Below, piece after piece: positions 16,990 through 36,764 of a DNA stretch of 64,000 bases (its first letter is position 1; each line of letters begins with the position of its first letter). The notes under the pieces were generated by a model. It was not told the origin of the DNA and searched no databases. It was given only the letters and a program-made list of their open reading frames with translations. The position numbers were made by a program, and so were the translations under genes. The stretch spans positions 96,001 to 160,000 of IMG/VR virus record IMGVR_UViG_3300028887_000075; one strand, written 5' to 3'. This DNA comes from a virus (taxonomy: Duplodnaviria; Caudoviricetes).

Positions 16990-17526
16990 ATGATTACCTT
17001 TGAAGAAGCACACAGGATACTGGACAGGGTCGAGCAGAAGAGCAAGGACCAGAAAGCCGTGGCAATCGAGCGGTTCGACCGGTTCATCCACACGATGGCA
17101 CTGTACCACGAGGACTTCAGCAAGACATGCGAGCTCGCCATGCGTAGGTACCGCATGAACCATCCTAATGGCGACGACGAGAATTTCTGCTACGGCAGCA
17201 TCGACACAAATCCCGTATTTCTGCAAGCAGTTCATGACGAAGCAGGCAATATGGCCATTTCCCTCGCCGTATTTAAGCATACCGACTATGGCCAGTACCA
17301 GATTGTTCTTCTTCCAAACGGGCACATCCGGCTGGACGGTCAGTGGACTACCATCGAAAAACTCAGGGACCGCCTCTGCGGAACCGACGACCTCAACAGT
17401 AACGTAATGGTTAACGTGCCGATTACTTTCATGTACCTCCTCGACTGGCTGGAAGTGATGGTTCCAGATAGGCTTGGACAACTGAAAGTTCTACTGCTGG
17501 AATTTATAGAAGCACTGGAGAAATAA
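16990..17526 (+). CDS. hypothetical protein
   Basis: GGAG RBS. Confidence 0.65.
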   Translation: MITFEEAHRILDRVEQKSKDQKAVAIERFDRFIHTMALYHEDFSKTCELAMRRYRMNHPNGDDENFCYGSIDTNPVFLQAVHDEAGNMAISLAVFKHTDYGQYQIVLLPNGHIRLDGQWTTIEKLRDRLCGTDDLNSNVMVNVPITFMYLLDWLEVMVPDRLGQLKVLLLEFIEALEK

Positions 17527-17591
17527 CATGACAACCCAGAAAAATACACCCAAGAAGACCCTGGATGCCGGCAAACACAAGGAAACGTAAT

Positions 17592-17759
17592 ATGACCAGA
17601 TTCACGCGTGAACTCGAAGAGCTCAAGAAGCTCGCCGACAATAGAGATACTGAAGTGGCGCACCTGAACGCTGATGGTATTCTCTGCGATATTCTTAAGA
17701 AGCTCGGCGAAGAAGACATAGTGAAAGCGTACAATGCCGTCAAGAAGTGGTATGCATAA
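17592..17759 (+). CDS. small conserved-type phage protein
   Basis: DTEVAHLNADGILCDIL...KWYA. Confidence 0.65.
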   Translation: MTRFTRELEELKKLADNRDTEVAHLNADGILCDILKKLGEEDIVKAYNAVKKWYA

Positions 17760-17781
17760 TGAATAACCGAGGAATAGAAGC

Positions 17782-18060
17782 ATGGCCACTCAGAAAAAGA
17801 CACCCAAAAAGACCCTGGACGACGCCATCAAGGCGCTATCCAAGGCAAAGACCAAGAAACAAATTTCGAAGTGCGCCGGTGAAGTCATAAAGCTGGCCGA
17901 GGAGAAGCCCGAACGGACGAGGACCAGCCCGAAGTATTCCCGCTTCATAAAGGCCACCCCCGACCTGAAGGGCAGGCTCGTCACCAGGTTCTACGTGGAC
18001 AGGACCCTCGACTTCTATGTCACCGATGTGAACTACCGCCGCCCTTTAGGGCGGCGGTAG
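17782..18060 (+). CDS. basic hypothetical protein, probably truncated by the palindrome
   Basis: Stop codon lies inside the 18026-18067 palindrome. Confidence 0.55.
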   Translation: MATQKKTPKKTLDDAIKALSKAKTKKQISKCAGEVIKLAEEKPERTRTSPKYSRFIKATPDLKGRLVTRFYVDRTLDFYVTDVNYRRPLGRR

Positions 18061-18067
18061 TTCACAT
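18026..18067. repeat. perfect 19 bp palindrome made of two IS200/IS605-type right-end halves
   Basis: ATGTGAACTACCGCCGCCC-TTTA-GGGCGGCGGTAGTTCACAT; right arm matches the ends at 20294 and 44604. Confidence 0.85.
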
Positions 18068-18187
18068 GAAAATGGCTATTTCAGCCAAAATACCCAGGAA
18101 AAAAATACATTACCAATTTTCAAAAATCGCGTCGATTTCCACAAAAAACGGTATAGTTTCCTGTACAGAAAACCAACGAGGCCATCA

Positions 18188-19276
18188 ATGTACAGGGGAA
18201 TATACAACCTCCGCTCCGCAGACGACAACATTATACTCACCGCCGAGCAACTAGAAGAAAGCATCAAGTGCTCCAAGGACCCGGTGTACTTTTTCAGGAA
18301 CTACTGCTATATACACAATGCGAGACAGGGACTGCACCTGTTCCAGCCACGACCCAGACAGCTGGCAGAAATCCCGGTGCTTTCATCGGAGAAGATGGTC
18401 AAGTCCGACTGGTACCGGCAATCCGGATATACCACGCTGGTACTGGCGCTCATGCTATGGAAGGCGATGTTCACCGCAAATACCGCATGCCTATACATGA
18501 TACCCAAGAAGGAACTGGCATACGAAAACTTCAACGAGAAGGTCCGCCAGATGTACCTCGCGCTCCCTGAATGGCTACAGACGGGAGTCAAGGAATGGAC
18601 GCACGAGAGGATAAGGCTAGCAAACGGTAGCATTTTCTGTGCCAAGGCGGCATCCGCCGACAATGCGGCTGGTATAGGATGGGACTACATATTCATCGAC
18701 GAGTTTGGCTGGATTAAGGACAAGGCCATGATGGAAATAGTCAACCGGCTGTTCCCGGTCGCCTGGTCCTCGAAGAAACAGCACCTGATACTGGGCCAGA
18801 GCCACCGGTTCGGACGGCAGACACCCGCCAACCTGCTGTTCTGGCAGAACAACACGCTGCCGTTCCACGTGTCCGAGTTCACATGGGACCAGGATGAGCG
18901 GCTGGACGCGAAGTGGGCAGAAGCGGAGAGGCTGCGTATCGGGGACCGGAACTTCGAGAAGCAATACTGCGGGAAGATAGAGATGAAGGACGACCCGGAC
19001 GGACTCCCTGAACAGTTCGGCAGGTGGACCGTATGGGCGGAGGGAAAGTTCCCGGATGTCAAGGAACGCTCCGGAGGAAGATACATTTGTACTGTAGCAA
19101 TGTTCAGCCGGTCCACCGGCCTGCCGGTAGGCACACCGCATATAGATGTGCTGGCCGCGGATGGCAACGGCGTGTTCCACGGGCTGTTCAGCGACGACGG
19201 GACATACGAGAAGGTAGTCGCATGGATGCCAGCACCGGAGATACCCGGGGAAGTCCGGGAGATTTACGGGGAGTGA
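18188..19276 (+). CDS. degenerate T4 gp17-type terminase ATPase domain fused to a DUF551-like tail; no nuclease domain
   Basis: IKCSKDPVYFFRNYCYI, RQSGYTT (Walker A K to Y), IRLANGS, IFIDEFGWI (Walker B), FEKQYCG; tail VVAWMPAPEIP. Confidence 0.8.
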   Translation: MYRGIYNLRSADDNIILTAEQLEESIKCSKDPVYFFRNYCYIHNARQGLHLFQPRPRQLAEIPVLSSEKMVKSDWYRQSGYTTLVLALMLWKAMFTANTACLYMIPKKELAYENFNEKVRQMYLALPEWLQTGVKEWTHERIRLANGSIFCAKAASADNAAGIGWDYIFIDEFGWIKDKAMMEIVNRLFPVAWSSKKQHLILGQSHRFGRQTPANLLFWQNNTLPFHVSEFTWDQDERLDAKWAEAERLRIGDRNFEKQYCGKIEMKDDPDGLPEQFGRWTVWAEGKFPDVKERSGGRYICTVAMFSRSTGLPVGTPHIDVLAADGNGVFHGLFSDDGTYEKVVAWMPAPEIPGEVREIYGE

Positions 19277-19310
19277 GTTGGGGGCTACCGGGAGACTACC
19301 GGGAGGCCAC

Positions 19311-19856
19311 CTATATCCGGCAGTAAGAGTTGACGAACTCCCTTATCGTATTTACCGTGGAGGAACCGTTGTCGAAATCGCAGCATATGCTTTCGTCCCC
19401 TTCTCCGGTGTACTTGACGTGCTTAACGCTCCATCCCGTAGGACCGTAAAGGTCATAACCCAAGGCGGACTCTGTGATTCTGAGCGATTCCTTAAGTACA
19501 TTCCTGTATTGCATGACGCCATAGTTCTCCTTGCAGAATATCTCTATGGTGGGCGAGCCTGCCGTGAAGGTCACCGAGAAAGAGTACGGGGTGCCGTCGG
19601 GAGTGCGCTCATCCCGGCGTATCCGGCAAATCTGCTCCATGAAGTTGTCCACCGCGATGGCTACCAGGGAATGCCTGGCATCGGCTTCGATAGCGGCGAT
19701 TGCCTCCAGCGAGTCCAGCCTCGTCCTGTACTCATGGATTGCCTTGTCCTTCACCTCGGAAAGCTGCTCCGGGCTGATAGGAGTGGGGTATACTTTCAGG
19801 TTGCCGTCGTCGAACTTGACCTCGAAACTTAGTCCTCCGTCTAGCGTTATCCTCAT
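19311..19856 (-). CDS. hypothetical protein
   Basis: AAGGAG RBS; reverse promoter at 19888-19900. Confidence 0.7.
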   Translation of the reverse strand: MRITLDGGLSFEVKFDDGNLKVYPTPISPEQLSEVKDKAIHEYRTRLDSLEAIAAIEADARHSLVAIAVDNFMEQICRIRRDERTPDGTPYSFSVTFTAGSPTIEIFCKENYGVMQYRNVLKESLRITESALGYDLYGPTGWSVKHVKYTGEGDESICCDFDNGSSTVNTIREFVNSYCRI

Positions 19857-20030
19857 GTGGCGCTCCTTTGCTTATGCGCTATATGGGCAAATATAGCAAA
19901 TTCCGGCGGGGAGCACCGGGAGGCTTGCCTGCCGGTACCGGGTCAACCGGGAGGGCCCTAGGTGGTACGCGGGGTATACCGGGGGAGAGTACTGGTTCAT
20001 AGTGTACAATATTAGTAATCAATATTTTAC

Positions 20031-20294
20031 AATTATCGGCGGGAAAGATGCCACCCTTCAGGGTGGCATATGAGAGCCGACGAAAAAATAGAAAAAGAAC
20101 TTGCATTTTTGAAACTGTTAAACTATATTAGGAACTGTCAGGCCGAAGGACACTAAATATGCGGGTACCTCCGGAACGGAGGAAACTTATGATGGTGGAC
20201 TGGTGGACCTATATATCCAAACCTATTCTGGAACGGACAAGTTCGCTGGGTTGAAACCAGAAGCTGCCGCCCTTTAGGGCGGTCTGTAGTTCAC
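20031..20294 (+). mobile_element. non-autonomous IS200/IS605-family element (264 bp, no TnpA/TnpB)
   Basis: TTAC target at 20027-20030; AAAG plus hairpin ATGCCACCC-TTCA-GGGTGGCAT at 20044-20069; GAAG plus hairpin and terminal TCAC at 20260-20294. Confidence 0.78.
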
Positions 20295-20302
20295 ATTGTT
20301 GA

Positions 20303-20602
20303 ATGGCTACTATGGAAACGCATCTTATCATGTTGCGGGATGCCTTCGATGCATCCCGGATTGCCGGAGTAAATGTCCGGGAATTAATTGACGCCGGTAT
20401 ACCTGTCGGTGACATGGATATCGGTTTCGCTACTTACTTCGACATATGTCCGGGCTGGGAGCCAGGTACCGCCTGGCCAGGAACCTCCATGGACGATGGT
20501 TATCCGCTTATTGGGATGATGGTGCATAGCTGTCCTGCCGGCTATAGCGTTTCACATTCGGTTTTCGACAAGTGGCATTTCTACCTCAGGACAAAGGTTT
20601 AA
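20303..20602 (+). CDS. hypothetical protein
   Basis: 99 aa ORF directly upstream of uvsX. Confidence 0.55.
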   Translation: MATMETHLIMLRDAFDASRIAGVNVRELIDAGIPVGDMDIGFATYFDICPGWEPGTAWPGTSMDDGYPLIGMMVHSCPAGYSVSHSVFDKWHFYLRTKV

Positions 20603-20617
20603 ACAAAGGATAATGTT

Positions 20618-21964
20618 ATGGCTGCAGCAAAGAAAAAGGGAGCAAACGCGCTTGCGGAGAATCCGTGGGCATTTTTCGATACGGTCGTTACGACCGACAA
20701 GTTCGTCGACGCGGGTGTTGACCGCCCGACGTACGGTTTCGCAGATTCCGGGAGCTACGCGCTGAACGTGCTTCTTTCCGGCGACGTCTATGGGGGATTC
20801 CCCAAGAACAAGGTCGTGCAGACGGCAGGCCTGCAGGGTTCCGGTAAGTCCCTGCTCGGCAAGTACAACTTCTGCCCACCGCTGTTCAAGGACAACTACT
20901 TCATCTACTATATCGATACCGAGAACGAGACCACCCGGAAGGACCTCGAGTTTTTCGCATCCTTCCCGTGTCAGCAATTCAAGGTGCTTCACTTCCATAC
21001 GGTAGAGGATTGCCACCACGGTATCTCCACCATCCTCAAGCAGCTCGAAGATTATATGGAGAAGAACAAGACGCTCATCAACCCGCACAAGGTTGCTTTC
21101 GTCCTTGACTCCCAGGGCATGCTGTCCACCGCCAAGAACATCACCGACGTGCTCAAGGGTGACGACAAGACCGACCTTACCAAGGCAAAGAAGCTCTCTG
21201 CGATGTACCGTGACCTTACCTTCCGTCTTGGTGAACTCGGTGCCCCGATGTATGTCACCAACCACATGTACCTTGACCCGAACGCGGCCACCACCCATAC
21301 CGAGACCAAGAAGGTCGCCGGTGGCGAAGGCGCCAAGTATTCTGCTTCCATCATCCTGTCCGTCTACAAGATTACCGAGCGTGTCGACAGCGGAAAGAAG
21401 GATGACTACGGCAACAAGGTCAAGGAGGTCCAGGGTATCTTCATCCAGGTCGGTAACATCAAGAACCGCCTTGTCCATGAAGGACTTAGCACCCGTCTCT
21501 ACCTGAGCTACAAGAATGGTCTCAGCCGCTACTACGGTCTCCATGTCTGGGCGCAGGAAGCCGGTCTCATCGTTCCCTACACCAAGCAGGCCGACTGGCC
21601 TGGCCTGGAACTTCCGAGGAACCCCGACGGTTCCACCTTCCTCGGCAAGAAGTGGGTTATCTGTGACCCGCGCAAGCCCCGTACGGAATGGCTGGTCGCT
21701 CCGGAGAACAAGATTCATTCCGCCAAGTATATCGGTACGATTCTTGACCCGATTAACGACTATGTAAAGGCCAAGTACAAGAACCAGAAGATTGGCGTGT
21801 TCGGCGACGAGGATACCGAGCAGGCTACCGAGGATGAGCTTGCCAACGTAGACGAGGCCGCGCTCGACCAGGCAGACGCCGAACAGAACAGCCGGTTCAT
21901 CCGGGAGGCTGCCCAGAAGGCGGAGGCCCTCGGGCTGGTCGCAGAAGGCTCCGCCGAAGACTAA
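20618..21964 (+). CDS. uvsX: UvsX/RecA-like recombinase
   Basis: DSGSYALNVLLSG, GLQGSGKS, YIDTE, VLDSQGML, VTNHMY and GGEGAKYSAS motifs. Confidence 0.92.
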   Translation: MAAAKKKGANALAENPWAFFDTVVTTDKFVDAGVDRPTYGFADSGSYALNVLLSGDVYGGFPKNKVVQTAGLQGSGKSLLGKYNFCPPLFKDNYFIYYIDTENETTRKDLEFFASFPCQQFKVLHFHTVEDCHHGISTILKQLEDYMEKNKTLINPHKVAFVLDSQGMLSTAKNITDVLKGDDKTDLTKAKKLSAMYRDLTFRLGELGAPMYVTNHMYLDPNAATTHTETKKVAGGEGAKYSASIILSVYKITERVDSGKKDDYGNKVKEVQGIFIQVGNIKNRLVHEGLSTRLYLSYKNGLSRYYGLHVWAQEAGLIVPYTKQADWPGLELPRNPDGSTFLGKKWVICDPRKPRTEWLVAPENKIHSAKYIGTILDPINDYVKAKYKNQKIGVFGDEDTEQATEDELANVDEAALDQADAEQNSRFIREAAQKAEALGLVAEGSAED

Positions 21965-21976
21965 TTAAAAAAGTTG

Positions 21977-22016
21977 AAGACCGGCCCCTCTCCGGGTCGG
22001 TCTTTTGCTATATTTG
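21977..22016 (+). terminator. terminator fused to a TTTGCTATATTTG promoter
   Basis: AAGACCGGCCC/GGGTCGGTCTT stem; T-run shared with the promoter. Confidence 0.75.
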
Positions 22017-22045
22017 GGAACGAACGAACTCGGATTTTGACTGCT

Positions 22046-23683
22046 ATGGAAAATTTGCAAAATCCTACGTTCGCGCAGCCTGTTCCGGCGATGCAACCGG
22101 GGTATCCCCCGGTAATGCAACCGCCACCTCCGCAGCAGCTACCGGTAGCTCCCGGTGGCTACATGCAGCCCCAGCAGCAGGTATATGCGTTAACGCGGGA
22201 AGACTTGGTAATTAGGGTATTCTTCCAGGATTCGGTAGTGGGACCAAAGCTACGCGATTCCCTGCGTGCGGAACTGTTCCAGGACGTGAACAACCGCAAC
22301 ATCGTGGAAATTATCCGGAAGTACATGCATAAGCATGGTCGTGTACCAACGGCACAGGAACTTATCACCGGCATGGGGGCGAACGACTACGCCATACAGG
22401 CCCGTGACAAGCTGATATTCATCTACAACACACCCATCCAGACGATGCATCAGGACTACGTGGTTCTGATGGTTGAGTCCTTCTTCAAGGAACGTCTGGC
22501 CGAGGAGGTGTTGGTGTCTGCCGCGGAGCAGATTCACGACAAGAAGGTTGATGGGATACGTGACCTCATCCCGCGTTTGCAGGCTGCAGTCACGTACAGC
22601 CTGCATACCGACCTGGGTCTCAACCTCTATTCGGATGCGGATACGGCACTGGCGAAATTGCGCGAGCAGAAACAGTGCATCCCCTCCGGTATCAATGAGA
22701 TACGATACTACACTGGTCGCCCGGGACTTGACGGAGTCATGGTCGGGGGCGGATACTACCGCAAGACGCTTTCCCTGTTCGTCGGGCAGCCCAACATAGG
22801 TAAGTCCCTTGTCCTCTGCTCGGAGGCGGCATACGCATACAAGAGCGGGTTCAATGTCCTCTACATAACCCTGGAACTTGCCGAGGACTATGTGTGGCAG
22901 CGTCTCGCGGCCAACATATGCGAGGTGGACTTCTATTCGGTGATGAGCCTTACCGGTGACGAGGTCAGGAAGAAGATTGACGAGAATGTCGCCAGGTTCT
23001 CCGCTACCGGCGCCCGTCCGGGACAGCTCCAGGTTCGCTACATGAAGACCACGACCACCCCGGTGGAAATCGAGGCGGTCATCGACTCGTTCGAGATTGC
23101 TCACGGTAAGTTGGATTTGCTGGTCGTTGACTATATCGGTATCATGAAGCCGGCGAGCCGTGGCAGGGTCTCGGAGTCAAGCATGTACCAGGACGGTGTC
23201 GCCAAGGCCGAACAGCTTCGCGATATCGCCATCGAGAGGAACTTCGCCTGCCTTTCCGCAGTGCAGTTCAACCGTTCCGGCTACCACAATACCGAGGCGG
23301 GCATCGAGTCGGTCGAGGGTTCTTCCGGTTACGCCGAGACTTCCGACCTGATGATTTCGCTGACGGCGAACGACGTGCTCCGAAGCATGGCGATGTTCAG
23401 CCACTATATCCTCAAGTCCCGCCTCGGACCGGCGCTCGTTACCTTCCTTACACGGTGCGACTTCAAGCAGATGCGCTGGTTCAGCCCGAGTAAGGAGGAG
23501 GTCAATGCATACAACACGGCTGCCGCCGAGGCGGAACCGCAGATGAACGCTCCCCAGAGGAACGGACAGAAGGGACAGCCGAAGCGTGCGGTAAGCAAGC
23601 CGGCAGAACCCCAGGCCCTCCCGGAGGCTACCGGGGAGACCCAGGAGGCCGTCAAGGTAGAGACCGTGGCGGACTACGTATGA
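22046..23683 (+). CDS. replicative DnaB/gp41-like helicase
   Basis: GQPNIGKS, YITLEL, VVDYIG, SAVQFNRSG and KSRLG motifs; Pro/Gln-rich N-terminus. Confidence 0.92.
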   Translation: MENLQNPTFAQPVPAMQPGYPPVMQPPPPQQLPVAPGGYMQPQQQVYALTREDLVIRVFFQDSVVGPKLRDSLRAELFQDVNNRNIVEIIRKYMHKHGRVPTAQELITGMGANDYAIQARDKLIFIYNTPIQTMHQDYVVLMVESFFKERLAEEVLVSAAEQIHDKKVDGIRDLIPRLQAAVTYSLHTDLGLNLYSDADTALAKLREQKQCIPSGINEIRYYTGRPGLDGVMVGGGYYRKTLSLFVGQPNIGKSLVLCSEAAYAYKSGFNVLYITLELAEDYVWQRLAANICEVDFYSVMSLTGDEVRKKIDENVARFSATGARPGQLQVRYMKTTTTPVEIEAVIDSFEIAHGKLDLLVVDYIGIMKPASRGRVSESSMYQDGVAKAEQLRDIAIERNFACLSAVQFNRSGYHNTEAGIESVEGSSGYAETSDLMISLTANDVLRSMAMFSHYILKSRLGPALVTFLTRCDFKQMRWFSPSKEEVNAYNTAAAEAEPQMNAPQRNGQKGQPKRAVSKPAEPQALPEATGETQEAVKVETVADYV

Positions 23684-25939: not shown

Positions 25940-27364
25940 ATGACAAACACACCAAACACAATGCAAGCAAATGGCGGTATGCTTTCTGTTACCGCCCCCG
26001 CAGCACCCACGGCAGCACCGGGTGCAAACCGCTCAGCCAACAAGGACGAACGCATGTGGCGCCCGGTTGTCACCAAGGACAACCCGGAATACGTTGCGGT
26101 AATCCGTACGCTTCCCAAGGGCCGCGACCTTAACGCCTATCCGGCAGTGTGCGTCCTCGTCCACCGCATACGCGACATGGTCACGGGCAAGGTGCTCTAC
26201 GACAAGTGCTGCAAGAACAACCCGAACGTCCGCACCTGCCCCTACTGCGAGGATGCGTGGGGACGCTACAACGAGGCCAAGAAGCGCCCGGGCATCACCA
26301 AGGAACAGCTCGGCAAGTTCCTCCAGCAGACTGCCGACGAGGAATGGTGGCAGAATATCTATGTCCGCCAGGACCAGAACCATCCGGAACTCAACGGTAC
26401 AGTGAAGGTCTGGGCGATGAGCCGCGGACAGCACAACCGCTTCCAGAAGCCGGTCGACAACTGGAACGCCAAGCACGACCCATCCAAGCAGGTACCTGGC
26501 GCAATCAATGTCGATACAGGTGACGACTTTATCCCGTACGACCCGATGCAGGGCCGTGACTACTACATCGCCGGCAAGTGGGATGCCGAGAAGTCTTACG
26601 GTGGTCGCCGCAAGGGCGCCCCGACCTATGACGGAAGCACTTTCGTCAAGGACTCCACCCCGCTCGCCTACCAGATGGTCCAGGACCCGAACACGGGCAT
26701 GGTCGTCTACCAACCCGACCAGAACCAGATGCTCGCCATCCTCGACCAGTGCCATGACCTGAGCTTCGCATACGACAATATCCCGACCCCGGAACAGGCT
26801 ACGGCTAACCTCGCCCAGTTCTGGGACGAGTGTGCCAAGGCCGCCGCAGAACGCCAGCAGTACGGTGGCGCCCGCGGTGCCGGCAACCAGGGCTACCAGC
26901 AGCCCCAGCAGCCGCTCTACGGCCAGGCTCCGGCCAACTACGGTGCACAGCCGTTCGCTACCGGTATGCCCGGTGTTCCGCAGAACAACATCCCGCAGGT
27001 CCCGAGCAACGCCAACATCAGCATGTCGTCCGACCCGGCTGCATTCATGGGCCAGGCCGCCCAGATGCCTCCCCCGATTCCCGAGGCTGCCGCTCCGGCT
27101 ACCCCGGCTTTCGCCCAGGCACCTATCCCGGCAACCATGCCCGGCCCGATGGCTACACCTACCGCTCCGGCAGCTCCCGCAGCACCCTCGTTCGTGCCCC
27201 CGGCAGCCCCGGCAGCACCCGCTGCTCCTACAGCCCCGTCCTTTGTGCCACCGGCAGCACCTCCCGTGCAGCAGCCGATGACGCAGTTCGCACAGCCGGC
27301 TGCACCGCAGGCTAACCCGGCTCCTATCGTGGAGACGGATAGCGACGAAGACCTCCCGTTTTAA
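25940..27364 (+). CDS. T4 gp32-like single-stranded DNA-binding protein with long Pro/Ala/Gln tail
   Basis: DERMWRP, AVIRTLP, H...CC...CPYCE Zn site, NIYVRQDQNHPELNGTV, YDPMQG, TYDGSTF; ends DSDEDLPF. Confidence 0.85.
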   Translation: MTNTPNTMQANGGMLSVTAPAAPTAAPGANRSANKDERMWRPVVTKDNPEYVAVIRTLPKGRDLNAYPAVCVLVHRIRDMVTGKVLYDKCCKNNPNVRTCPYCEDAWGRYNEAKKRPGITKEQLGKFLQQTADEEWWQNIYVRQDQNHPELNGTVKVWAMSRGQHNRFQKPVDNWNAKHDPSKQVPGAINVDTGDDFIPYDPMQGRDYYIAGKWDAEKSYGGRRKGAPTYDGSTFVKDSTPLAYQMVQDPNTGMVVYQPDQNQMLAILDQCHDLSFAYDNIPTPEQATANLAQFWDECAKAAAERQQYGGARGAGNQGYQQPQQPLYGQAPANYGAQPFATGMPGVPQNNIPQVPSNANISMSSDPAAFMGQAAQMPPPIPEAAAPATPAFAQAPIPATMPGPMATPTAPAAPAAPSFVPPAAPAAPAAPTAPSFVPPAAPPVQQPMTQFAQPAAPQANPAPIVETDSDEDLPF

Positions 27365-27423
27365 TTTGTATGTAATGACTCGTAAGTCAATACGACGGAT
27401 TATAGCGAAAATCTGACCATTTA

Positions 27424-27468
27424 GGGACCGGCATCAACTTGCCGGCCCCTTCTTTTTTGCTATATTTG
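27424..27468 (+). terminator. terminator fused to a promoter
   Basis: GGGACCGGCA/TGCCGGCCCC stem plus T-run into TTTGCTATATTTG. Confidence 0.7.
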
Positions 27469-27476
27469 GTTCAAGA

Positions 27477-28643
27477 ATGGCAATAAGTTTCGACGACATA
27501 CCCGCGTCGGTGTACGACTCGTTCATACACGAGCAGTTCGAGCAGTATGCCCTGGATGACTCCCATCCGGGGTTCTACAACTTCGTATGTCCGAATCCCG
27601 AGTGCGGGGACATGAACTTCCCTAACAAGAAGAAGGCGTATATCTATACCGATACCTGGCTCTATGTGTGCTGGAAGTGCGGTGAGCGCATGCATTTCGC
27701 CCGGTGGCTGAAGGAGCATGACGAGCAGGCATACCAGCGGCTCCTGTTCATGGCCTTCGGAAATGACCGTGGCCAGAAGAAGGAGGCGCCCTCCCCGAGA
27801 CCAGAGAGGAAACTGGATGCCACCCTCCCGTTCAAGGACGGGGAACTGATGTCCATTTACGACAGCGACCCTCTTGCACAGGCGGCGCTTGCCCTGTGCC
27901 GCTCCCGGAGAATCCGGGAGGAGGTATACTCGGAGTGGTTTGTGTGCCGCCAGGGCGAGCAGTTCTACGACCGGGACGAGGCAGGCAACATAAAGTATGA
28001 TGACTATGGCCGTCCGAAGGGAAACGATTACAGGAACCGCATAATCATCCCGTTCTACAAGTTCGGCGGCAAGTGGGGCCAGTTCGACGCCCGTGCGATA
28101 GACCCGAACAACCCACTCCGCTACCGGAACTTTACCGGTGTCAAGCGCGGTGCCTACAATATCGACTTCATCAACTACTCCGAGACAATCTACATTCTCG
28201 AGGGTACGATAGACTCTACCTTTATCCGCAACTCCATTGCCATTGGCGGCATCCCGCACTTCGGCGAGGTGATTGCCGAGAATCCGCAGCTTGCTGCCGC
28301 CAAGGACAGGATAGTTGTGCTGTGGGATAATGACCCGGAAGGGCGCAAGGCGAGAACGGGAACTACCTGTGACCAGGGGTACAAGTGGTTCTCCTGGGAC
28401 GGGATACACAGCAAGGACGTGAACGGGGCGGTGATGTCCGGGGAGTTCCCGGTGGATGCCGACGGTTTCGTCGATAGTAATTTTCTGAAGTCCCGCACGA
28501 GGGACCCAGAAGGGGCGAGTATCCTGTTCACCATGAAGTACGGCAACATGAAGAAGGAGGCTTCGAGGAAGCGGTTCGACGCACTGAAGGCATTCCGCGA
28601 GGGACGGGCGAAGCCGAACAACCGTCCGGAGGTTCTGTTCTGA
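27477..28643 (+). CDS. T4 gp61-like DNA primase
   Basis: Zn finger CPNPEC...CWKC, RIIIPF, TOPRIM LEGTIDS, WDND, KDVN. Confidence 0.9.
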   Translation: MAISFDDIPASVYDSFIHEQFEQYALDDSHPGFYNFVCPNPECGDMNFPNKKKAYIYTDTWLYVCWKCGERMHFARWLKEHDEQAYQRLLFMAFGNDRGQKKEAPSPRPERKLDATLPFKDGELMSIYDSDPLAQAALALCRSRRIREEVYSEWFVCRQGEQFYDRDEAGNIKYDDYGRPKGNDYRNRIIIPFYKFGGKWGQFDARAIDPNNPLRYRNFTGVKRGAYNIDFINYSETIYILEGTIDSTFIRNSIAIGGIPHFGEVIAENPQLAAAKDRIVVLWDNDPEGRKARTGTTCDQGYKWFSWDGIHSKDVNGAVMSGEFPVDADGFVDSNFLKSRTRDPEGASILFTMKYGNMKKEASRKRFDALKAFREGRAKPNNRPEVLF

Positions 28644-30679
28644 TGGCTAACGTACTCGTGCAGGCATACAGGAACCGGTTCCTCGACCGTGAGTTCATAG
28701 ACTACAACTTCATTACCAGGATTACCCATATCCCGTCCGAGCAGTTGAAGCGCCTAGGAGTATTTGACGGGCTTCCTTACAGGTATGACCCGCAGGGGCA
28801 CAAGGAGTTCCGCATGACGGACGCCATGTCCGCCCTTGCCAAGGCGAAGCTTACTCCGCCAGACAACCTGCACCCGCTGTACGAGTTCAGTGTAGCCCAG
28901 GCGATGAACGAGCTCCGCATCAAGCCGGAGTCGGTAAATGCGCTGATAAAGAGCGGGAAGCTCCGTACGCATGTTTCGGAATATGACAATTACCGCAAGA
29001 TTTACCGCAAGGACCTGGAATATTACCGGCGGAACTGGGACCCGGTGTATCTTGCTGAATTCATGAAGGTTCCTCTCCGTAGGAGCATGGCCGCGCTCAT
29101 AATGGGAATCCGTGCATCGACCATATGGAGGCTAGAAAGGACAAAAGCAATTACACCCATGCCCAGGAAGAAGGGCGAACGGGTAAAGTACAGCAAGGCC
29201 GAGGTACTGAGGTACCTGCATAGCCGGAAGGTGCGCGTGTACCGGAAAGACCCGCTGCCCGAATACATGAACTCCGAGCTGGCTCTGGTATATTCCGGGT
29301 TCTCCACCAGTAAGTTCAAGCAGCTTAGCGATGTAAAGCGGCTGAATGCTGAATGGCATACGTTCCCGGACGGGAAGAAGATGTGGGTATACAGCAAGGC
29401 AAGGATTGACCAGATTCGGGAAGAGGAACTAGCTCGGGAATATTACTGTGAGGGACTGCCTTACTATACACGTAGGGCAATCAAGTACAAGTTCTTCAAG
29501 ACTGACCGGTGGGTGGACATGTTCATCGTAGGTAAATGCCGCCGGATGCACGACAAGAAGAGAATACTGTCCCCTGACGAAAAAGGCGTGTCATCGCAGG
29601 GATGGGTCAAGGAGGACGTGGAGCAGGTGGTCGCGTCAGGCGTCGACTTCAAGTTCAGGAAGAAACAGAAGCCACTGTCCCGCGTTACCCGCAAGTACAT
29701 GAGAGTCGTAGCAGTGGCCAAGCCGCCGGTAGCGTTCTCCTCCCCGGTCGAACAGATGGAGGAGGCAATCCGGCTGGCACTGGATGAGAAGGCGGAAAAG
29801 AAGAAGAAACACATGGCCGACATAAGGGAAAAGATGAACTATACGATGGCCAGACGCAATGCAATCCGCAATATCCTCACGACAGGCGCATCCAACACCC
29901 CGATGATTCCGTCCAGGAATGACTTCCTCAGGTATGCTACTGACCGGCAGATTGTCACGTTCATGATATCGACCGACGGAAAGTCCGGGAGATACCGAGA
30001 ATATCCGCATACCAAGGAAGAGAGAATTTTCAAGGCCAGGCCGGGACGTAACCTGGGCAGGCGCAAGATAGCCCCGGTATTCGCACGTGCAATCCTGAAC
30101 GTGCTGACCACATACAACAGGTACAATTTTGAGAAGATACCCGCATGGGTTGTATTGGTGTCATCCACCTCCATGATTACTGACCCGATGTTCCATAGCA
30201 AGCTAGCCGCGGTCCCGGATAATGTAGGGGCGGTAGGTCCGTTCGGGTACGGATACATACTTCCGGACGGTTCGTGGGATGCCTGTTCGGAGACATACGG
30301 GAGTTACTGGGTGTACAGCGAAATTACCGGGGAGAACCGGAAGGTGGAAGGACTATCGTCGACCTCGGGTAGTCACCGGGTTGACATGCTCGACGGTCCG
30401 TTCATTGCCATACGGGGAGAGTACCTGCAGGAACTTACATCGATGAGGTATTTCATGCAGCTGGGCGATGCACGAGGTCTCCTGGCACCCACAGTATCCG
30501 CTATAATCAGGAGGCATGGAATACCTATGATGCAGATACCGGTAGATTGCTGGGCAAGCGCGGAGTTCGAGGTAAGGCCGGGTACACCCGAGATGAACCT
30601 GGCAATAGAGCGAATTACACGTTTCGTCAGTCTGAACGAAGCAGAACTTAATGCATTCCTAAAGAAAAAGAAGGTATAG
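28643..30679 (+). CDS. multi-HTH basic protein fused to a glycosyltransferase-like C-terminal domain
   Basis: Repeated Xis/MerR-like units (SVAQAMNELRIKPESVNALIKSGKL; MAALIMGIRASTIWRLE); C-terminal VGAVGPFG...VDMLDGPFIAIR. Confidence 0.55.
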   Translation: MANVLVQAYRNRFLDREFIDYNFITRITHIPSEQLKRLGVFDGLPYRYDPQGHKEFRMTDAMSALAKAKLTPPDNLHPLYEFSVAQAMNELRIKPESVNALIKSGKLRTHVSEYDNYRKIYRKDLEYYRRNWDPVYLAEFMKVPLRRSMAALIMGIRASTIWRLERTKAITPMPRKKGERVKYSKAEVLRYLHSRKVRVYRKDPLPEYMNSELALVYSGFSTSKFKQLSDVKRLNAEWHTFPDGKKMWVYSKARIDQIREEELAREYYCEGLPYYTRRAIKYKFFKTDRWVDMFIVGKCRRMHDKKRILSPDEKGVSSQGWVKEDVEQVVASGVDFKFRKKQKPLSRVTRKYMRVVAVAKPPVAFSSPVEQMEEAIRLALDEKAEKKKKHMADIREKMNYTMARRNAIRNILTTGASNTPMIPSRNDFLRYATDRQIVTFMISTDGKSGRYREYPHTKEERIFKARPGRNLGRRKIAPVFARAILNVLTTYNRYNFEKIPAWVVLVSSTSMITDPMFHSKLAAVPDNVGAVGPFGYGYILPDGSWDACSETYGSYWVYSEITGENRKVEGLSSTSGSHRVDMLDGPFIAIRGEYLQELTSMRYFMQLGDARGLLAPTVSAIIRRHGIPMMQIPVDCWASAEFEVRPGTPEMNLAIERITRFVSLNEAELNAFLKKKKV

Positions 30680-30684
30680 CCACT

Positions 30685-31569
30685 ATGGAACCACAGATAA
30701 TCACAATGAGCCCGCAGTTCTTTGCACTGCTGAAGAAACTCACCATGGTAAGCAAGTCCAAGGCTACCGTGATGTTTAAGGCCAACGGCAGGTGCAGGAT
30801 TACCATACCTACGCCGGCTACGTTCCTTCACATATCGGCCGGACCGGCTGACCTTAACTTTGGTGGCAACGAGATATGTGTCGCAAACATGATGGAGTTC
30901 ATCAAGTTCTGCGAGCTGGTGGGATATCCCGGTACGGTGAACAGTAACGTCCAGGCGCTGGAACGGACGCTATCCAACGGGCATGTCTACCCGATGCTCC
31001 AGTTCATGAACGGCAACGATACCACTGCGACCCGCACGGCATACACGATTTGTGCCGACCCGACAAGGTTCGACAAGAAGGCCCGTCACGTTCCGGCTGA
31101 CCGCGACAAGGACATCATGAACTGCCTGTCAACCATTTCAATGGGCAAGGACGCACTGAAGACCTTCTGTGACGAGCTCAAGCTGGTTCCCGGCTGTCAG
31201 TTCGTATCCGTGGTGTTGAGCCATACGAAGGTGAAGATTTACATGAAGGGACGTACCGGACAGCAGATTACTGAGGACATCCCCAGGAACTGCACCCGCA
31301 TGGGTGCCGCCGACCTAATTGATGCCGCCTATGCCAGTTCTAAGGACAAGTACAGAAAGATTCCTGCCATGTACTTCACCATACTGAAGGGCATCGAGAC
31401 CGACTACGAGATTGAGGTTCGCCACATGAAGACCGAGGCCCGTGACAAGATTGCCCTGAAGGCGTTCTCTTCCCTGGCCGGAGCAGACCCGCAGGACCCG
31501 ATTTCCCTCTACGTGGCCGGCATGGAGAGCGACGGCGGTGAAATCAACCATGAGGCCCTGGTCGAATAA
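30685..31569 (+). CDS. T4 gp45-like sliding clamp
   Basis: N-terminus MSPQFFALLKKL and C-terminus LYVAGME resemble gp45; size and context fit. Confidence 0.6.
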   Translation: MEPQIITMSPQFFALLKKLTMVSKSKATVMFKANGRCRITIPTPATFLHISAGPADLNFGGNEICVANMMEFIKFCELVGYPGTVNSNVQALERTLSNGHVYPMLQFMNGNDTTATRTAYTICADPTRFDKKARHVPADRDKDIMNCLSTISMGKDALKTFCDELKLVPGCQFVSVVLSHTKVKIYMKGRTGQQITEDIPRNCTRMGAADLIDAAYASSKDKYRKIPAMYFTILKGIETDYEIEVRHMKTEARDKIALKAFSSLAGADPQDPISLYVAGMESDGGEINHEALVE

Positions 31570-31592
31570 GCCATAAACTACGGTAGTCGAAT

Positions 31593-32753
31593 ATGGACTG
31601 CCGTATGCAAATTGAACTTGATGATATCTTGCTTGAGGCCCTCGGTGAACTGCCGGACCTCCCGGAATCCCTCGTAGTCGCCCTGGTGGAAGGCGCCCAT
31701 GCCCTCACCGGTGGTATGCGCAAGTTCCGCCCCCTCACTCCCGAGGAGACCGATGCGGTTGTCGACTACCTGAGGGGCAACGCCGCCAGGCTTGGAACAC
31801 CGTTCAACGAGGCCGAAATCCGGGCAGATATCGCGAAGCATCCGGGAAAGTACCAGAATACCCTGGCGAACATCAAGAAGCGCCGGGAGATGCCGTCTGC
31901 CTTTGAAAGGAACATGCGCATAAAGCAGTCTGCTGACAGGAGGCAGGCCGAGGTGGACAACAAGGCGAAACGTTTCATCTACTATGCGGCCATCGTGGAG
32001 CGGCTCAAGAAGAGCTTCTCCCACTTCGGTATTCCGTTCGACGAGACGCGTGCCATGACGGACATAGCGCGTGACGATGCGAGGTGGCTTGCGCGAGTGG
32101 TACTCAGGGATGCCCAGGAGAATCCAGTATTCATGTCGCTCGGTATGGCGGCCAAGGACCCGTCCGTAAGCTACCTCCGAATGAAGAATCCTTCCCTTGC
32201 CAAGTACATGCAGGATGCATTCAGCTTCAGCCGGATGGACGAAAAGGAACTGGAAAGCATGAAGGTCGAATACAGGTACATGCGGCCGGATGTTGCCAAG
32301 GAGGCTGCCAGTAAGTCCGGGAAGAATCCTGGCGAACATTCTACTACCAACACGGAATATGACAGCAAGATAGCTCCATGGTACGGCAAGGGAGTATCGC
32401 TAGTTGATGTGGTGATGAAATGCAAGGATGTACCGTACGACTACATATGTCGGTACTTCGTGGAGCATGGTGGGGCCGACCGGGTCAAGGATGCGCCCAG
32501 GGCCGGGGAGGACATCGTGGAATACCTCCGCAGGCTACCCAGGGGTGACCGGGGTGAACTGGAGTTCACCACCGAGCTCAACCGGCTGTCCGAGGCTGCA
32601 TTCGGGCGGGCCGTGGTCGACGGTGCTGTCAAGCAGGTTGAACGGGAAAATCCCGGAAAGTTCGCCGAGATGACGGCGAAATGCTCCCGCAGCATGGTCA
32701 AGCCGAAGGATATACCGCTGTACGCCGCGTGGTGCACCTTGCACGCCAAGTAG
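31593..32753 (+). CDS. hypothetical protein (ATAAACT promoter class)
   Basis: 386 aa ORF. Confidence 0.75.
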   Translation: MDCRMQIELDDILLEALGELPDLPESLVVALVEGAHALTGGMRKFRPLTPEETDAVVDYLRGNAARLGTPFNEAEIRADIAKHPGKYQNTLANIKKRREMPSAFERNMRIKQSADRRQAEVDNKAKRFIYYAAIVERLKKSFSHFGIPFDETRAMTDIARDDARWLARVVLRDAQENPVFMSLGMAAKDPSVSYLRMKNPSLAKYMQDAFSFSRMDEKELESMKVEYRYMRPDVAKEAASKSGKNPGEHSTTNTEYDSKIAPWYGKGVSLVDVVMKCKDVPYDYICRYFVEHGGADRVKDAPRAGEDIVEYLRRLPRGDRGELEFTTELNRLSEAAFGRAVVDGAVKQVERENPGKFAEMTAKCSRSMVKPKDIPLYAAWCTLHAK

Positions 32754-32799
32754 GCCAGCAGTATAAACTACTGGAAAATCGACAGAATCGAGGTTCCAA

Positions 32800-34290
32800 G
32801 TGGCCGTATCGCTTACAGATTTCACGAAGACGTTCCAGTACGTCACCACCAAGAGCGGACCGGTAGTCCCGGCCCGTACGACAACCGTCGACATGATGAA
32901 GGGCACGCTGCCCCCAGTAGACGACCAGACCAAGGAAAAGTTCGACCACCGGACATACGAGAACAAGAACCTCGAGATGAAGAAGAACTACCTCTCCCTC
33001 CGCGATATCGGGGTGAAGGTCATGACCGAGGCTACTTCCAGTACGTCATATTCCCCGATGCGGCTCAATCTCGCCGGGATGGACATGGACAATACCTCGC
33101 TCAACGGGGCCTTCAACTGTGACGGCACTCCGGTTACAATCAACCTGAAGTATCCCAACAAGAACGGGAACATCAGTGTCGAGCTCACCCTGGACGGCGG
33201 TGCGACCATGCTGTACGAGGTATCCCTCGATTCCGACCAGTTCAAGGGGAACTTCGCCCAGTCAATCCGGGAGAGCGCCAGGAACCTCATCAAGCAGAAC
33301 AGCGAACCGGCCGACCTGGACGAGATGCTTTACGGTGTGGGTGCCATCCCGAGCATGAAGGACAACTTCAACGACACGCTCGGCATCGCCAATTCCGACA
33401 CCAACAACATCACCGCATACGAATCTGTCGACTGGAAGCTCCAGAAGCTTCTCAATGTATGCAACGAGGCCGCCATGCTCGAGGCCGATGACGACATGGG
33501 TGGCGACGCCGGTGCCGACTTCGGTGCGGATGACTTCGCCGCCCCGGCGGACGGCGGTGCACCTGCCGGTGGCGACATGGGCGCCCCCCAGGATGCCGGC
33601 GATGTCAACGGTGTTACCGATGGTAACGGCAAGGGTGACGACATGCTCGAGTTCCGCGAGTTCTGCCTCCCGAGCGACCCGGATAACGGCTCCGGCCTAT
33701 CCCAGGCAGCATGGGACAACATGGCCCAGATTGTATCCGACGCAATCAACTACATCAACGACAACCAGGCTGGTGGCGTCAAGCCGTCGGCCAATGAATG
33801 GTACGAGGGCTTCCCGGGTGTCAAGAACATGATTCCGGAAGAAATACTCGAACAGTTCCTGTCGTTTGACGACTACAAGGCGCTCGATACCACTCTCCCC
33901 ATCGACGGCCTTAGGCAGTTTGCCCATGCCCTCGAGGGTGGCAAGATTGACATCACCAAGTTCAAGACCGACCTCGGCAAGTGGTTCCCCGAAGTGTACA
34001 ATACCGACGGTACTGCCATGAGTGACGTGTCCAAGGAAACTGCCGCCATGACGTTCCCGGCCGATGACCAGACCGGCGTCGGACAGGGTCTCGACATGAA
34101 CTCCCAGATGGACTTCGGCGGCTACGACGGCTTCAACGATACCGAGGGCATGATGGACCAGGCCAACGCTATGGTCGGCAATGGCAATACCGACCCGGGC
34201 ATCGACATGAGCGAGGGCGGTAGCGATTCCGAAGAACCGGGTAAGGACAAGACCGACATCGCAATCGACTCCTTGGACAACCTGTTCTAG
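32800..34290 (+). CDS. very acidic Asp/Gly-rich protein ending in SLDNLF
   Basis: 496 aa ORF, GTG start with GAGG RBS, TATAAACTA upstream. Confidence 0.8.
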   Translation: MAVSLTDFTKTFQYVTTKSGPVVPARTTTVDMMKGTLPPVDDQTKEKFDHRTYENKNLEMKKNYLSLRDIGVKVMTEATSSTSYSPMRLNLAGMDMDNTSLNGAFNCDGTPVTINLKYPNKNGNISVELTLDGGATMLYEVSLDSDQFKGNFAQSIRESARNLIKQNSEPADLDEMLYGVGAIPSMKDNFNDTLGIANSDTNNITAYESVDWKLQKLLNVCNEAAMLEADDDMGGDAGADFGADDFAAPADGGAPAGGDMGAPQDAGDVNGVTDGNGKGDDMLEFREFCLPSDPDNGSGLSQAAWDNMAQIVSDAINYINDNQAGGVKPSANEWYEGFPGVKNMIPEEILEQFLSFDDYKALDTTLPIDGLRQFAHALEGGKIDITKFKTDLGKWFPEVYNTDGTAMSDVSKETAAMTFPADDQTGVGQGLDMNSQMDFGGYDGFNDTEGMMDQANAMVGNGNTDPGIDMSEGGSDSEEPGKDKTDIAIDSLDNLF

Positions 34291-34309
34291 CCCCGGGAGA
34301 TATCCTTTT

Positions 34310-34340
34310 GAAGGCGGCTGCTACCGGCAGCTGCCTTTTT
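34310..34340 (+). terminator. intrinsic terminator
   Basis: AAGGCGGCTGC/GCAGCTGCCTT stem plus T-run. Confidence 0.8.
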
Positions 34341-34374
34341 GATTTAGTTTCTCTACCGAAAGAGAGGAACTATT

Positions 34375-35535
34375 ATGTCCGAAGAAGTATCTACAGTAGA
34401 AGAATCCGCCGGGCCGAGCCTGGTCATGTTCAATACCGTTACCGGTTTCCGCGAGGCGATGACCTTCATCGGGTTCTCGTGCGAGTCAGATGACGTCAAG
34501 GTGCACGTCGAGACCTTCGAGAACGAGGAAGAGGGACTTGTCTACATGAAGCTCACTACGTCCAAGGGTGTCAGCGTGCTTATCGACTCGACCCTGAAGT
34601 CCAAGTGCCTGGATAGCGATGCGTATGTCAACCTCCGCGACCTGTACGTGTTCTGCGACAAGGGTGTGAAGGACGGACTGGTTGCCATGTGGGTGGCCGA
34701 CAACAGGCTCTATGTCGGTTCGTCGTTTAATGAGTCGTTCCAGGGGTTCGAGTCCGAGGCAAGTCTCCCGCTGCTCGAACCGTTCGAAACCGAAGCCGAG
34801 GAATTCCTGCTGCAGGATAGTATCAAGATTGAGCAGACCGTGATGGCGTCAATCATCGACAGCGTCTATACGTTCGACTGCATGGAGATTATCAGGAAGG
34901 AGGGGACGCTCTCGTTCCGCACCGGGGATGACCGGGTGACAATCGCTACCCTCCCGGCAAGTACCAAGATGGAATCGTTTACGGAGGACGGCAAGCTGGG
35001 TGATTTCGAGGTTTCTGTCCCGCTGTGCATATTCAAGCTTATCCCGCTGGTAGAAACCAAGTCGGTATGCACGATGGAGTTCGACTGGACCCACGGGACA
35101 ATCCGTTCACAGGGAAAACTCTATGGGTTTACCTACAAGTTTGCGCCGGCAACTCTCCGTACGGGTACCAGTGACGGTATGATGTCCTACATGAAGTTCG
35201 ACACGCTCGGCATGGCAGCGACTATCGACATGATTTACGGGCTCAACTACCGTGACCCGACTGCACCGGTCACCCTTACCCCGCTTGATGAGAAGACTGT
35301 CGAAATCAAGTACGCCAACGGTGACCGCTATGAGGGTGTCATCACGATGACCGGGGTCAAGATGATGGATACTAAAAAGTCCATCGAGTTGCCGATGGAC
35401 ATAAGTACTATGATGGTCAGGAATGCCGGGACTTCCGTGCTTGAGCTGCTCTATGGCGAAGATGGCCGCCTCTTTATGACATACTGCAACGAGAAGATGG
35501 GCTACGCCAGGAAGTGCATGTACTTCGGCGATTAG
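34375..35535 (+). CDS. probable DnaN (beta-clamp)-fold protein
   Basis: 386 aa, acidic; collinear by-eye similarity to DnaN segments (VNLRDLYVFC...NRLYVGS; IEQTVMASII; FRTGDDRVTIA; EVSVP; VTLTPLDEKTVEI). Confidence 0.5.
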   Translation: MSEEVSTVEESAGPSLVMFNTVTGFREAMTFIGFSCESDDVKVHVETFENEEEGLVYMKLTTSKGVSVLIDSTLKSKCLDSDAYVNLRDLYVFCDKGVKDGLVAMWVADNRLYVGSSFNESFQGFESEASLPLLEPFETEAEEFLLQDSIKIEQTVMASIIDSVYTFDCMEIIRKEGTLSFRTGDDRVTIATLPASTKMESFTEDGKLGDFEVSVPLCIFKLIPLVETKSVCTMEFDWTHGTIRSQGKLYGFTYKFAPATLRTGTSDGMMSYMKFDTLGMAATIDMIYGLNYRDPTAPVTLTPLDEKTVEIKYANGDRYEGVITMTGVKMMDTKKSIELPMDISTMMVRNAGTSVLELLYGEDGRLFMTYCNEKMGYARKCMYFGD

Positions 35536-36143
35536 AGCTCGGCCAGGTCGTCGCTGCCGCCGAGGTCGAAATCCTCGGCAGGACCTTCATCGGAACTGCC
35601 ATTGTCGAGCGGTTCCGTTTCAGTATCCGGGCTTCCCGGCTCGATTTCGGACATCGCATTGACGCTGTCACCGTCCAGTTCGGAGCCGAAGTCGCCAAAG
35701 TCGTCATTCACCTGGTCGAACGAGGCCATACCCTCGTCGGAGAATCCCAGGTCCATGTTGTCGATTCCGCCGCCGAAGCCGCCGCCGAAACCGCCCGCAT
35801 CTTCACCGAAATCACCCGGGGCGGCGAACATGTCCGCACCGGGAGGCGGGACGTTGGGGTCGAACCCCATGAGGTCGTCATACTCGGTATCTTCGTCGGA
35901 TTGTTCCTCGGGATGTTCCAGTTTTTGCCGGAGGGAGTTGACCGCGTCGTGGACCATGTCCTGCTCGGTACCTCCCAGTACCTGATTGGATGGGTCGTCC
36001 ATGGCCTCCTTGTGCTTCTCGAGCATCTCGTTGCGGAAGCGTGCCTTGATTTCGCTGACAGGGATGCCGGAATCCCGGCTGAGCTCGGTAAATATAGGGA
36101 GCTCGTGGCTCACCGTGGATGATTTCGGTATGTTCAGGTCCAT
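35532..36143 (-). CDS. very acidic low-complexity protein
   Basis: D/E/G-rich; GGAGG and AGGA upstream. Confidence 0.75.
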   Translation of the reverse strand: MDLNIPKSSTVSHELPIFTELSRDSGIPVSEIKARFRNEMLEKHKEAMDDPSNQVLGGTEQDMVHDAVNSLRQKLEHPEEQSDEDTEYDDLMGFDPNVPPPGADMFAAPGDFGEDAGGFGGGFGGGIDNMDLGFSDEGMASFDQVNDDFGDFGSELDGDSVNAMSEIEPGSPDTETEPLDNGSSDEGPAEDFDLGGSDDLAEL

Positions 36144-36156
36144 CCTGCTAGTCCTC

Positions 36157-36753: not shown

Positions 36754-36764
36754 GTTTGCAAGTT
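36717..36764. repeat. exact 24 bp tandem duplication
   Basis: GGTTGATTGTCATGTTTGCAAGTT x2. Confidence 0.95.

Follow-up and report, generated by a model that had tools for sequence, protein, structure and literature searches.

The gene at positions 18188–19276 (+ strand) of the stretch of phage DNA shown above very probably belongs to a family of inactive, conserved paralogues of the ATPase domain of the large terminase subunit (TerL). The stretch, referred to here as the window, is 64,000 nucleotides long and corresponds to bases 96001–160000 of the 170,734-bp IMG/VR record IMGVR_UViG_3300028887_000075 (CheckV completeness 41%), which derives from an uncultured jumbo phage (Duplodnaviria; Caudoviricetes). 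Judged from its sequence, the protein (P0001) cannot be a packaging enzyme, because it is without the Walker A lysine, an arginine that is invariant in TerL proteins, an intact coupling motif and a nuclease domain, and a complete TerL is encoded elsewhere. The gene has the following parts:

18178–18181, + strand: Shine-Dalgarno sequence GAGG, 6 nt 5' of the ATG, read from the sequence
18188–19276, + strand: complete coding sequence of P0001, 362 aa with stop, pseudo-ATPase and DUF551-like tail (open reading frame (ORF) list and homologues)
18188–18982, + strand: N-terminal domain, aa 1–265, with the T4 gp17 ATPase fold (AlphaFold2 (AF2), Foldseek and family profile)
18401–18436, + strand: remodelled P-loop, K72-S-D-W-Y-R-Q-S-G-Y-T-T83, the best-conserved block of the family (alignment A2)
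18428–18430, + strand: Tyr81 codon, TAT, in place of the Walker A lysine, read from the sequence
18698–18703, + strand: Walker B Asp171 and, at the position of the catalytic glutamate, Glu172 (YIFIDEF), from sequence and alignment
18800–18820, + strand: family-specific insert of 7 residues, SHRFGRQ, aa 205–211, which splits the coupling (C) motif, from the alignment
19001–19273, + strand: predicted small beta-domain, aa 272–362, ending in VVAWMPAPEIP, with a DUF551-like fold (AF2 and ESM-Atlas)

A terminase motor domain

The initial annotation described an intact frame with a gp17-like N-terminal domain, and both descriptions hold. The ORF of 362 codons is complete and has a ribosome-binding site, and the N-terminus MYRG is common to all homologues. 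The Pfam family Terminase_6N matches aa 77–187 of P0001 with 30.9 bits (cut-off 22), and the protein also matches PHROG 5989, 'terminase large subunit', with an E-value of 1e-36. A profile built from the family finds the T4 gp17 structures 3EZK, 3CPE and 2O0H with E-values of 1e-57 to 1e-61. The AF2 model agrees with these matches. Its mean predicted local distance difference test score (pLDDT) is 85, with values mostly between 82 and 97 per block in the N-terminal domain, and its nearest structures in Foldseek are those of gp17 (2O0H, root-mean-square deviation (rmsd) 3.4 Å over 277 columns; E-values for 2o0h/3cpe of 1e-18 to 1e-19). No resemblance of P0001 to non-terminase proteins was found in the structure and sequence searches.

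The gp17 ATPase domain (2O0H, 3CPE) is the closest characterised protein. P0001 is collinear with it over about 265 residues, and the P-loop Arg-Gln, the Walker B Asp, the adenine-site Gln and many residues of the core are common to both. Unlike gp17, however, P0001 has Tyr for the Walker A Lys, Ala for Arg160/161, a split coupling motif and a DUF551-like tail in place of the RNase H-like nuclease.

Loss and rebuilding of the catalytic motifs

The family set comprises 30 proteins (n=30) and its invariant columns were read from alignment A2. The canonical TerL proteins used for comparison number 46 in the tree alignment and 33 in alignment A5. At the position of the Walker A lysine all 30 family members have Tyr or Phe, and all the canonical TerL proteins of both comparison sets have Lys. 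The exchange of lysine for tyrosine in RQSGYTT, which the initial annotation had singled out, is thus borne out both by the TAT codon at 18428–18430 and by the homologues. The motif W-Y-R-Q-x-[G/S]-[Y/F]-[S/T] is carried by every family member, and no literature describing a W-Y-R-Q-x-[G/S]-[Y/F] family was found. The invariant P-loop columns are K72, D74, W75, Y76, R77, Q78 and T83, among which K72, D74, W75 and Y76 are residues gained by the paralogue.

The other catalytic motifs have been affected to different degrees. Walker B was said to be retained, and D171-E172 are indeed present in P0001. Across the family D171 is found in 97% of the members, whereas E172 is found in about 50% (Asn, Asp or Tyr elsewhere) compared with 100% of TerL proteins. 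The coupling region reads I-T-S-T-P-A-G in the phage's own TerL (P0018) and G-Q-S-H-R-F-G-R-Q-T-P-A-N in the paralogue. The earlier statement that there is no S/T-T-P coupling motif is therefore correct in so far as the motif is broken by the SHRFGRQ insert, but T212-P213 remain. About 50% of the family members retain the arginine that is invariant in TerL proteins (R160 of P0018); P0001 has Ala161 instead. The RNase H-like nuclease domain is absent, as was also claimed: Terminase_6C does not match the P0001 ORF, and in the whole record it matches the true TerL only.

Several non-catalytic TerL residues are kept (E24, C28, Y34, F35, Y39, Q58, R77, Q78, P127, W129, Q131, G133 and N146), and these are compatible with a TerL-like interaction surface or with the core of the fold. 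The most conserved region of the family is the former pocket, namely K-x-D-W-Y-R-Q-x-G-Y/F-T-T, D-E/N/D-F-G and S-H-R-F-G-R-Q. Going by the conservation of these columns, the nucleotide pocket is rebuilt and not decayed, a pattern that marks a pseudo-enzyme whose pocket has been re-used.

A complete terminase and purifying selection

There are two TerL-like genes in the 170.7-kb record, those for P0001 and P0018. The true TerL, P0018, has 553 aa and is encoded about 100 kb from the paralogue. Its Walker A motif reads S-R-Q-V-G-K-S-T, and it matches both Terminase_6N (75.6 bits) and Terminase_6C (24.7 bits). P0001 is 31% identical to it over 274 residues. The separate full-length TerL that the initial annotation supposed to exist is thus present, and because it is intact the gene at 18188–19276 is a paralogue and not a split or decaying terminase. 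The gene that follows is convergent and unrelated, so that a split nuclease gene completing P0001 is not found there:

19311–19856, − strand: convergent downstream gene, 181 aa, no family match (ORF list)

A homologue of this 181-aa gene also lies 3' of the paralogue in one related locus (L005).

The missing lysine and the missing nuclease, and nothing beyond them, would suggest that the gene is a pseudogene in decay, that the sequence contains an error or that a terminase has been split and only its ATPase half lies here. An explanation of this sort has practically no probability left. The frame is intact, and Tyr or Phe is fixed at the lysine position in 30/30 homologues that come from independent assemblies; GKT is found in none of them. 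Pairwise ratios of nonsynonymous to synonymous substitution rates (dN/dS) among homologues, a comparison proposed in the initial annotation, are 0.15–0.33 for the whole gene, 0.12–0.26 for the N-domain and 0.20–0.36 for the tail; for one of the pairs dS is unsaturated, at about 0.2. These values are well below 1 and point to purifying selection. With a full TerL elsewhere, no free-standing nuclease gene and a convergent gene on the 3' side, decay, error and splitting are refuted by these data.

Forms and distribution of the family

Searches for the paralogue covered 5.8 billion proteins and 1.84 billion representatives, and nine IMG/VR loci added members. The family is small and sharply separated in the search: its members score between 568 and about 219 bits, and true TerL proteins reach 193 bits at most. 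In a maximum-likelihood tree of the ATPase domain, the 30 paralogues are split from 46 T4-type TerL proteins by a single branch with a Shimodaira–Hasegawa-like approximate likelihood ratio test (SH-aLRT) support of 99. This tree is unrooted and comes from a 'quick' search; judged by it, the duplication can only be called old, and the donor cannot be named.

Three forms of the paralogue are found. The short form (258–284 aa) is the ATPase-like domain alone. The medium form (345–366 aa), to which P0001 belongs, has the domain and a small beta tail. The long form (441–460 aa) has the domain and an unrelated-looking tail of about 180 aa that has no Pfam match. In the tree the medium forms make up one clade (support 97) within the long forms, and the short forms lie on long branches. 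Members were recovered only from metagenomic phage contigs, of up to 453 kb. A tblastn search of 50,697 phage records, made for family members in cultured phages with the medium and short forms, gave only true TerL proteins, at 30% identity or less.

The related records include G002 (253,117 bp, CheckV 99%), G003 (355 kb, CheckV 93%), G004 and G005, and a locus (L003) in a 442-kb relative. Every related record searched held at least one form of the paralogue. G003, G004 and G005 carry a true TerL that is 67–91% identical to P0018 in addition to the paralogue, which is of the long form in G003 and G004, while G005 has both a long form and a short form of 270 aa. The Terminase_6C search is insensitive in these relatives, as it misses the true TerL of G004, and it gives no argument for the absence of a nuclease there. 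G002 (L010, L027) encodes a long-form paralogue of 459 aa, and searches with the P0018 protein, Terminase_6N, Terminase_6C and TerL_ATPase found no T4-type TerL in it. Either this record is incomplete despite its CheckV estimate or its terminase is unusual.

The short form of G005 (L032:1498–2310, + strand; G005:C1:106653–107465) ends 12 nt before terL and occupies the slot that is usually filled by the small terminase subunit (TerS). Its P-loop reads S-W-Y-R-Q-A-G-Y-S-S and its Walker B motif is reduced to L-D-Y-F. In the phage studied here, terL abuts a divergent glycosyltransferase-like gene without such an insert (L001). The true TerL of G005 is a 999-aa open frame (L032:2323–3804; G005:C1:107481–110420) with a large insert that begins at the coupling motif (I-I-I-T-S / C-V-V-K-D). 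The insert resembles an intein that carries a homing-endonuclease domain.

A comparable gene is known from another group of jumbo myoviruses. The gp3 protein of the Rak2-like Escherichia phage 121Q (PHROG 27915) is, like P0001, terminase-ATPase-like and is without the P-loop Lys. It is encoded directly 5' of terL, whereas the gene in the window is about 100 kb away and has an extra domain; only the short form of G005 is found in that position. Comparison of the profiles of 121Q gp3 and the paralogue family with hhalign gave a probability of 0.1%.

The location of these two genes directly 5' of terL raises the question of whether the paralogue is a surrogate for TerS, in which an inactive domain with a variable C-terminal module would recognise phage DNA and activate TerL. 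The gp16-type small terminase (Pfam DNA_Packaging, PF11053) was found in none of the five records G000, G002, G003, G004 and G005, which would fit such a role, but TerS proteins diverge so strongly that they can escape Pfam, and the miss is uninformative here. The medium and long forms adjoin terL in no record, and in G003 and G004 terL and the divergent glycosyltransferase-like gene are direct neighbours. A role as TerS surrogate is considered very unlikely.

The C-terminal module

AF2 modelling of the tail alone gave a small beta-sheet with a terminal helix (pLDDT 84). Its nearest folds in ESM-Atlas include a DUF551 cluster (template modelling (TM) score 0.57/0.66, rmsd 2.6 Å over 66 residues) and a cluster in which a helix-turn-helix (HTH) is joined to DUF551 (TM 0.58). 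The comparison has predicted models on both sides and a short domain, and is suggestive only. DUF551 (PF04448; for example Stx-phage Ea22 V2 and YfdS) is a small beta-rich domain, and the C-terminal motif W-M-P-x-P-E-x-P, which is its hallmark, is common to the P0001 tail. Unlike DUF551 proper, however, the P0001 tail lies under the Pfam threshold, and no match to PF04448 was obtained for P0001:255–362. The tail of the most divergent medium form (P0011) reaches 21.9 bits (cut-off 22, E 3e-4). The DUF551-like tail of the initial annotation is thus upheld by the predicted fold but not by Pfam, and it is reasonable to call the modelled tail DUF551-like at the level of the fold.

Other relationships of the tail were also considered. 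Foldseek found no match for the tail model in the PDB. Standalone relatives of the tail amounted to one fragment only in the search of 5.8 billion proteins, and tblastn of the P0011 tail against phages gave nothing useful. A remnant of the TerL nuclease was not supported, as hhalign against TerL nuclease domains gave a probability of 0.2%; HMMER and MAFFT loosely align the first strands of the tail to the start of the nuclease domain, and the Atlas structure matches spanned 306–318 residues. Homology of the medium tail to the long-form tail was not supported either (hhalign E 0.089 over 29 columns, not significant), nor was a nuclease in the long-form tail, for which the profile comparison was not significant.

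Genomic position and upstream signals

The gene is flanked on the 5' side by unannotated small ORFs and on the 3' side by a replication module. This T4-like replication and recombination module, at 20618–23683 and 25940–40498, includes a UvsX-like recombinase, a DnaB-like helicase, a gp32-like single-stranded DNA-binding protein (SSB), a primase and a 977-aa DNA polymerase. No conserved gene neighbourhood was found across 13 loci. The sole recurring neighbour is a radical-SAM gene that lies beside the paralogue in four loci, three of which are near-identical. Positions 1–13095 of L003, in the 442-kb relative, are collinear with 44800–58300 of the window (tail sheath, tail tube and the next genes; 31–66% protein identity). 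In L003 the paralogue lies directly after the tail-tube gene, and the same slot is empty in the window. The paralogue therefore relocates as a unit within a backbone that is otherwise conserved.

It is possible, though doubtful, that the paralogue has taken up a role outside packaging, for example in replication, recombination or the handling of DNA ends, in which the rebuilt pocket would bind a ligand or nucleic acid or serve an enzyme activity other than that of an ATPase. The position of the gene just 5' of the UvsX, helicase, SSB, primase and polymerase module would suit such a protein. The pocket is the most conserved part of the family and has gained W75, Y76, Y/F81 and H-R-F-G-R-Q instead of drifting. 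DUF551 is a portable phage module that is fused to many N-terminal domains and has no known function (PMC10834534), and among its partners are HTH and other DNA-related domains (PMC10834534; ESM-Atlas cluster). However, the neighbourhood differs in the relatives, no search points to a ligand, and the searches gave no similarity beyond terminases.

The following features lie between the preceding ORF and the first codons of the gene:

18030–18063, + strand: perfect 15-bp inverted repeat with a 4-nt loop, over the TAG stop of the upstream ORF 17782–18060, read from the sequence
18101–18159, + strand: A/T-rich conserved upstream block, TTTTnnAAAAT ... GATTT ... AAAA ... TATAGT/TATAAT-like box (18152–18157), from alignments A3 and A8
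18151–18205, + strand: predicted RNA stem-loop in which the stretch immediately following the TATAGT box is base-paired with the start codon and the first codons (predicted free energy −19.5 kcal/mol, z −3.4)

The upstream block is kept in six loci (the window, L003, L004, L005, L008 and L009) whose proteins are only 43–70% identical, and its pattern occurs once in the window where 0 occurrences are expected. It is probably a promoter or operator that belongs to the gene and travels with it. A recurrent phage promoter was also considered for this motif and was rejected, as the motif has a single occurrence within the window. The sigma-70 scan found no promoter on the + strand. The inverted repeat may be a terminator-like insulator before the gene, without a T-run; for lack of this T-run the terminator scan did not list the hairpin at 18030–18063. 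At the equivalent relative place in L003 there is a GC hairpin, and there a T-run does follow. The Rfam scan of 17000–21000 gave no family match.

The initial annotation spoke of a 'hairpin-locked promoter' and of timed expression. A stem-loop at the start codon is predicted here and recurs in L004 (69% identical; z −4.6), and timed expression is plausible. It is absent in four relatives (L003, L005, L008 and L009), however, and so is not a feature of the family. In T4, a late transcript that starts inside such a hairpin frees the start codon. The stem-loop resembles this arrangement of T4 late transcripts, which makes a similar control a possibility for this lineage only.

The motif TATAAACT is found on the + strand at 31573, 32763, 36819, 46557 and 60888, 20–45 nt before start codons that include that of the 1251-aa tail-sheath gene (46592–50347). 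By analogy with TATAAATA of T4, TATAAACT is probably the late-promoter box of this phage. It also precedes the long-form paralogue in L012; the box before the gene in the window differs.

Possible functions

It is tentatively proposed that P0001 has a packaging-linked function and acts by binding, without ATP hydrolysis. As a mimic of the TerL motor domain it would engage the usual partner or ligand of TerL (candidates are DNA, the portal, the TerL ring itself and an activator of the TerS type) and would thereby modulate the packaging of the genome or assist in it. A second contact would come from the C-terminal module, which is exchangeable and may be absent, DUF551-like or the ~180-aa domain. 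In support of this proposal, the core of the fold and many non-catalytic TerL residues are kept, a T4-type TerL co-occurs where this can be checked, and one form occupies the TerS slot in G005. The failure to find a gp16-type TerS in the five records counts as weak evidence for it.

A number of points weigh against this proposal. The paralogue is about 100 kb from terL in this phage and lies beside replication genes. Its neighbours are not conserved and its position differs even between syntenic relatives (L003). The divergence of TerS is such that the Pfam miss is no sign that TerS is absent. The aromatic and Arg-rich pocket could bind something outside packaging. Phages with similar TerL proteins also carry different forms of the paralogue (medium here, long and short in G005). 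Such swapping of forms between phages with very similar TerL proteins looks more like the behaviour of an exchangeable accessory gene than that of a core part of the motor. Together with the changing position of the gene, it would suit an accessory function, which might be linked to conflict.

The initial annotation regarded the protein as a decoy or as a dominant-negative regulator of packaging or superinfection. In a counter-defence role, an inactive look-alike would engage the host sensors of the terminase ATPase domain (Avs1-3 or Upx) as a non-activating competitor or a sponge and would shield the real TerL. T4 vs.8 is relevant to this idea. Like P0001, it is a free-standing TerL-ATPase-like paralogue without a nuclease that is encoded away from gene 17. 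Unlike P0001, it has intact Walker A (GGRQSGKS) and Walker B motifs, belongs to PHROG 1488, and has 219 aa without a C-terminal module; hhalign gave a probability of 0.1% for a profile relationship of vs.8 to the paralogue family. T4 vs.8 has been reported to activate EcAvs2 (PMC13601566). It is bound by this sensor, and an anti-defence role has been speculated for such proteins (PMC13601566). The gene in the window also resembles a cassette, with its variable location, its own conserved upstream block and differing forms in relatives.

The way in which the sensors recognise TerL bears on this role in both directions. Avs3 and Avs2 read TerL active-site residues with bound ATP, and Avs3 reads the nuclease domain too (PMC13601566). 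The change of Lys to Tyr or Phe would remove canonical ATP binding, and as ATP is part of the surface read by Avs2 and Avs3, a mimic that is bound might not activate the sensor. However, P0001 probably lacks the active-site residues and the bound ATP, and it lacks the nuclease domain, so that it may go unseen by the sensors. If a sensor did recognise such a mimic, activation would be the expected outcome, as in the case of T4 vs.8 and EcAvs2. The paralogue is present in every related record searched, as one would sooner expect of a core gene than of an anti-defence gene with a sporadic distribution. The decoy idea is somewhat disfavoured, and a copy without the Lys and the nuclease would more likely be invisible to Avs sensors, or would have to act as a non-activating competitor. 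A counter-defence mimic is on the whole unlikely.

A broader version, in which the whole W-Y-R-Q-x-G-Y/F family would be dedicated to conflict, is improbable. Its members would occupy the terminase-binding pocket of the sensors (Avs1-3, Upx) or the packaging machinery of rival phages, they would be natural competitive inhibitors of terminase sensing, and the C-terminal modules would tune the target. Such a mimic would fail the ATP-dependent activating interface because its pocket cannot hold ATP canonically.

Significance

Free-standing copies of the terminase motor domain recur in large phages, as T4 vs.8, the Rak2-like gp3 and the present family demonstrate, and none of them has a known function. 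Annotation pipelines will name such genes 'terminase large subunit'. Where a single TerL per genome is assumed, phylogenies and estimates of completeness can be misled by this name. The family described here is a clean case, in which the Lys is always Tyr or Phe, the pocket is conserved, three architectures exist and an intact TerL is found alongside. It offers a defined pseudo-enzyme with which to ask whether such proteins are regulators of packaging, stand in for the small terminase or interfere with immune sensors that read the terminase ATPase.

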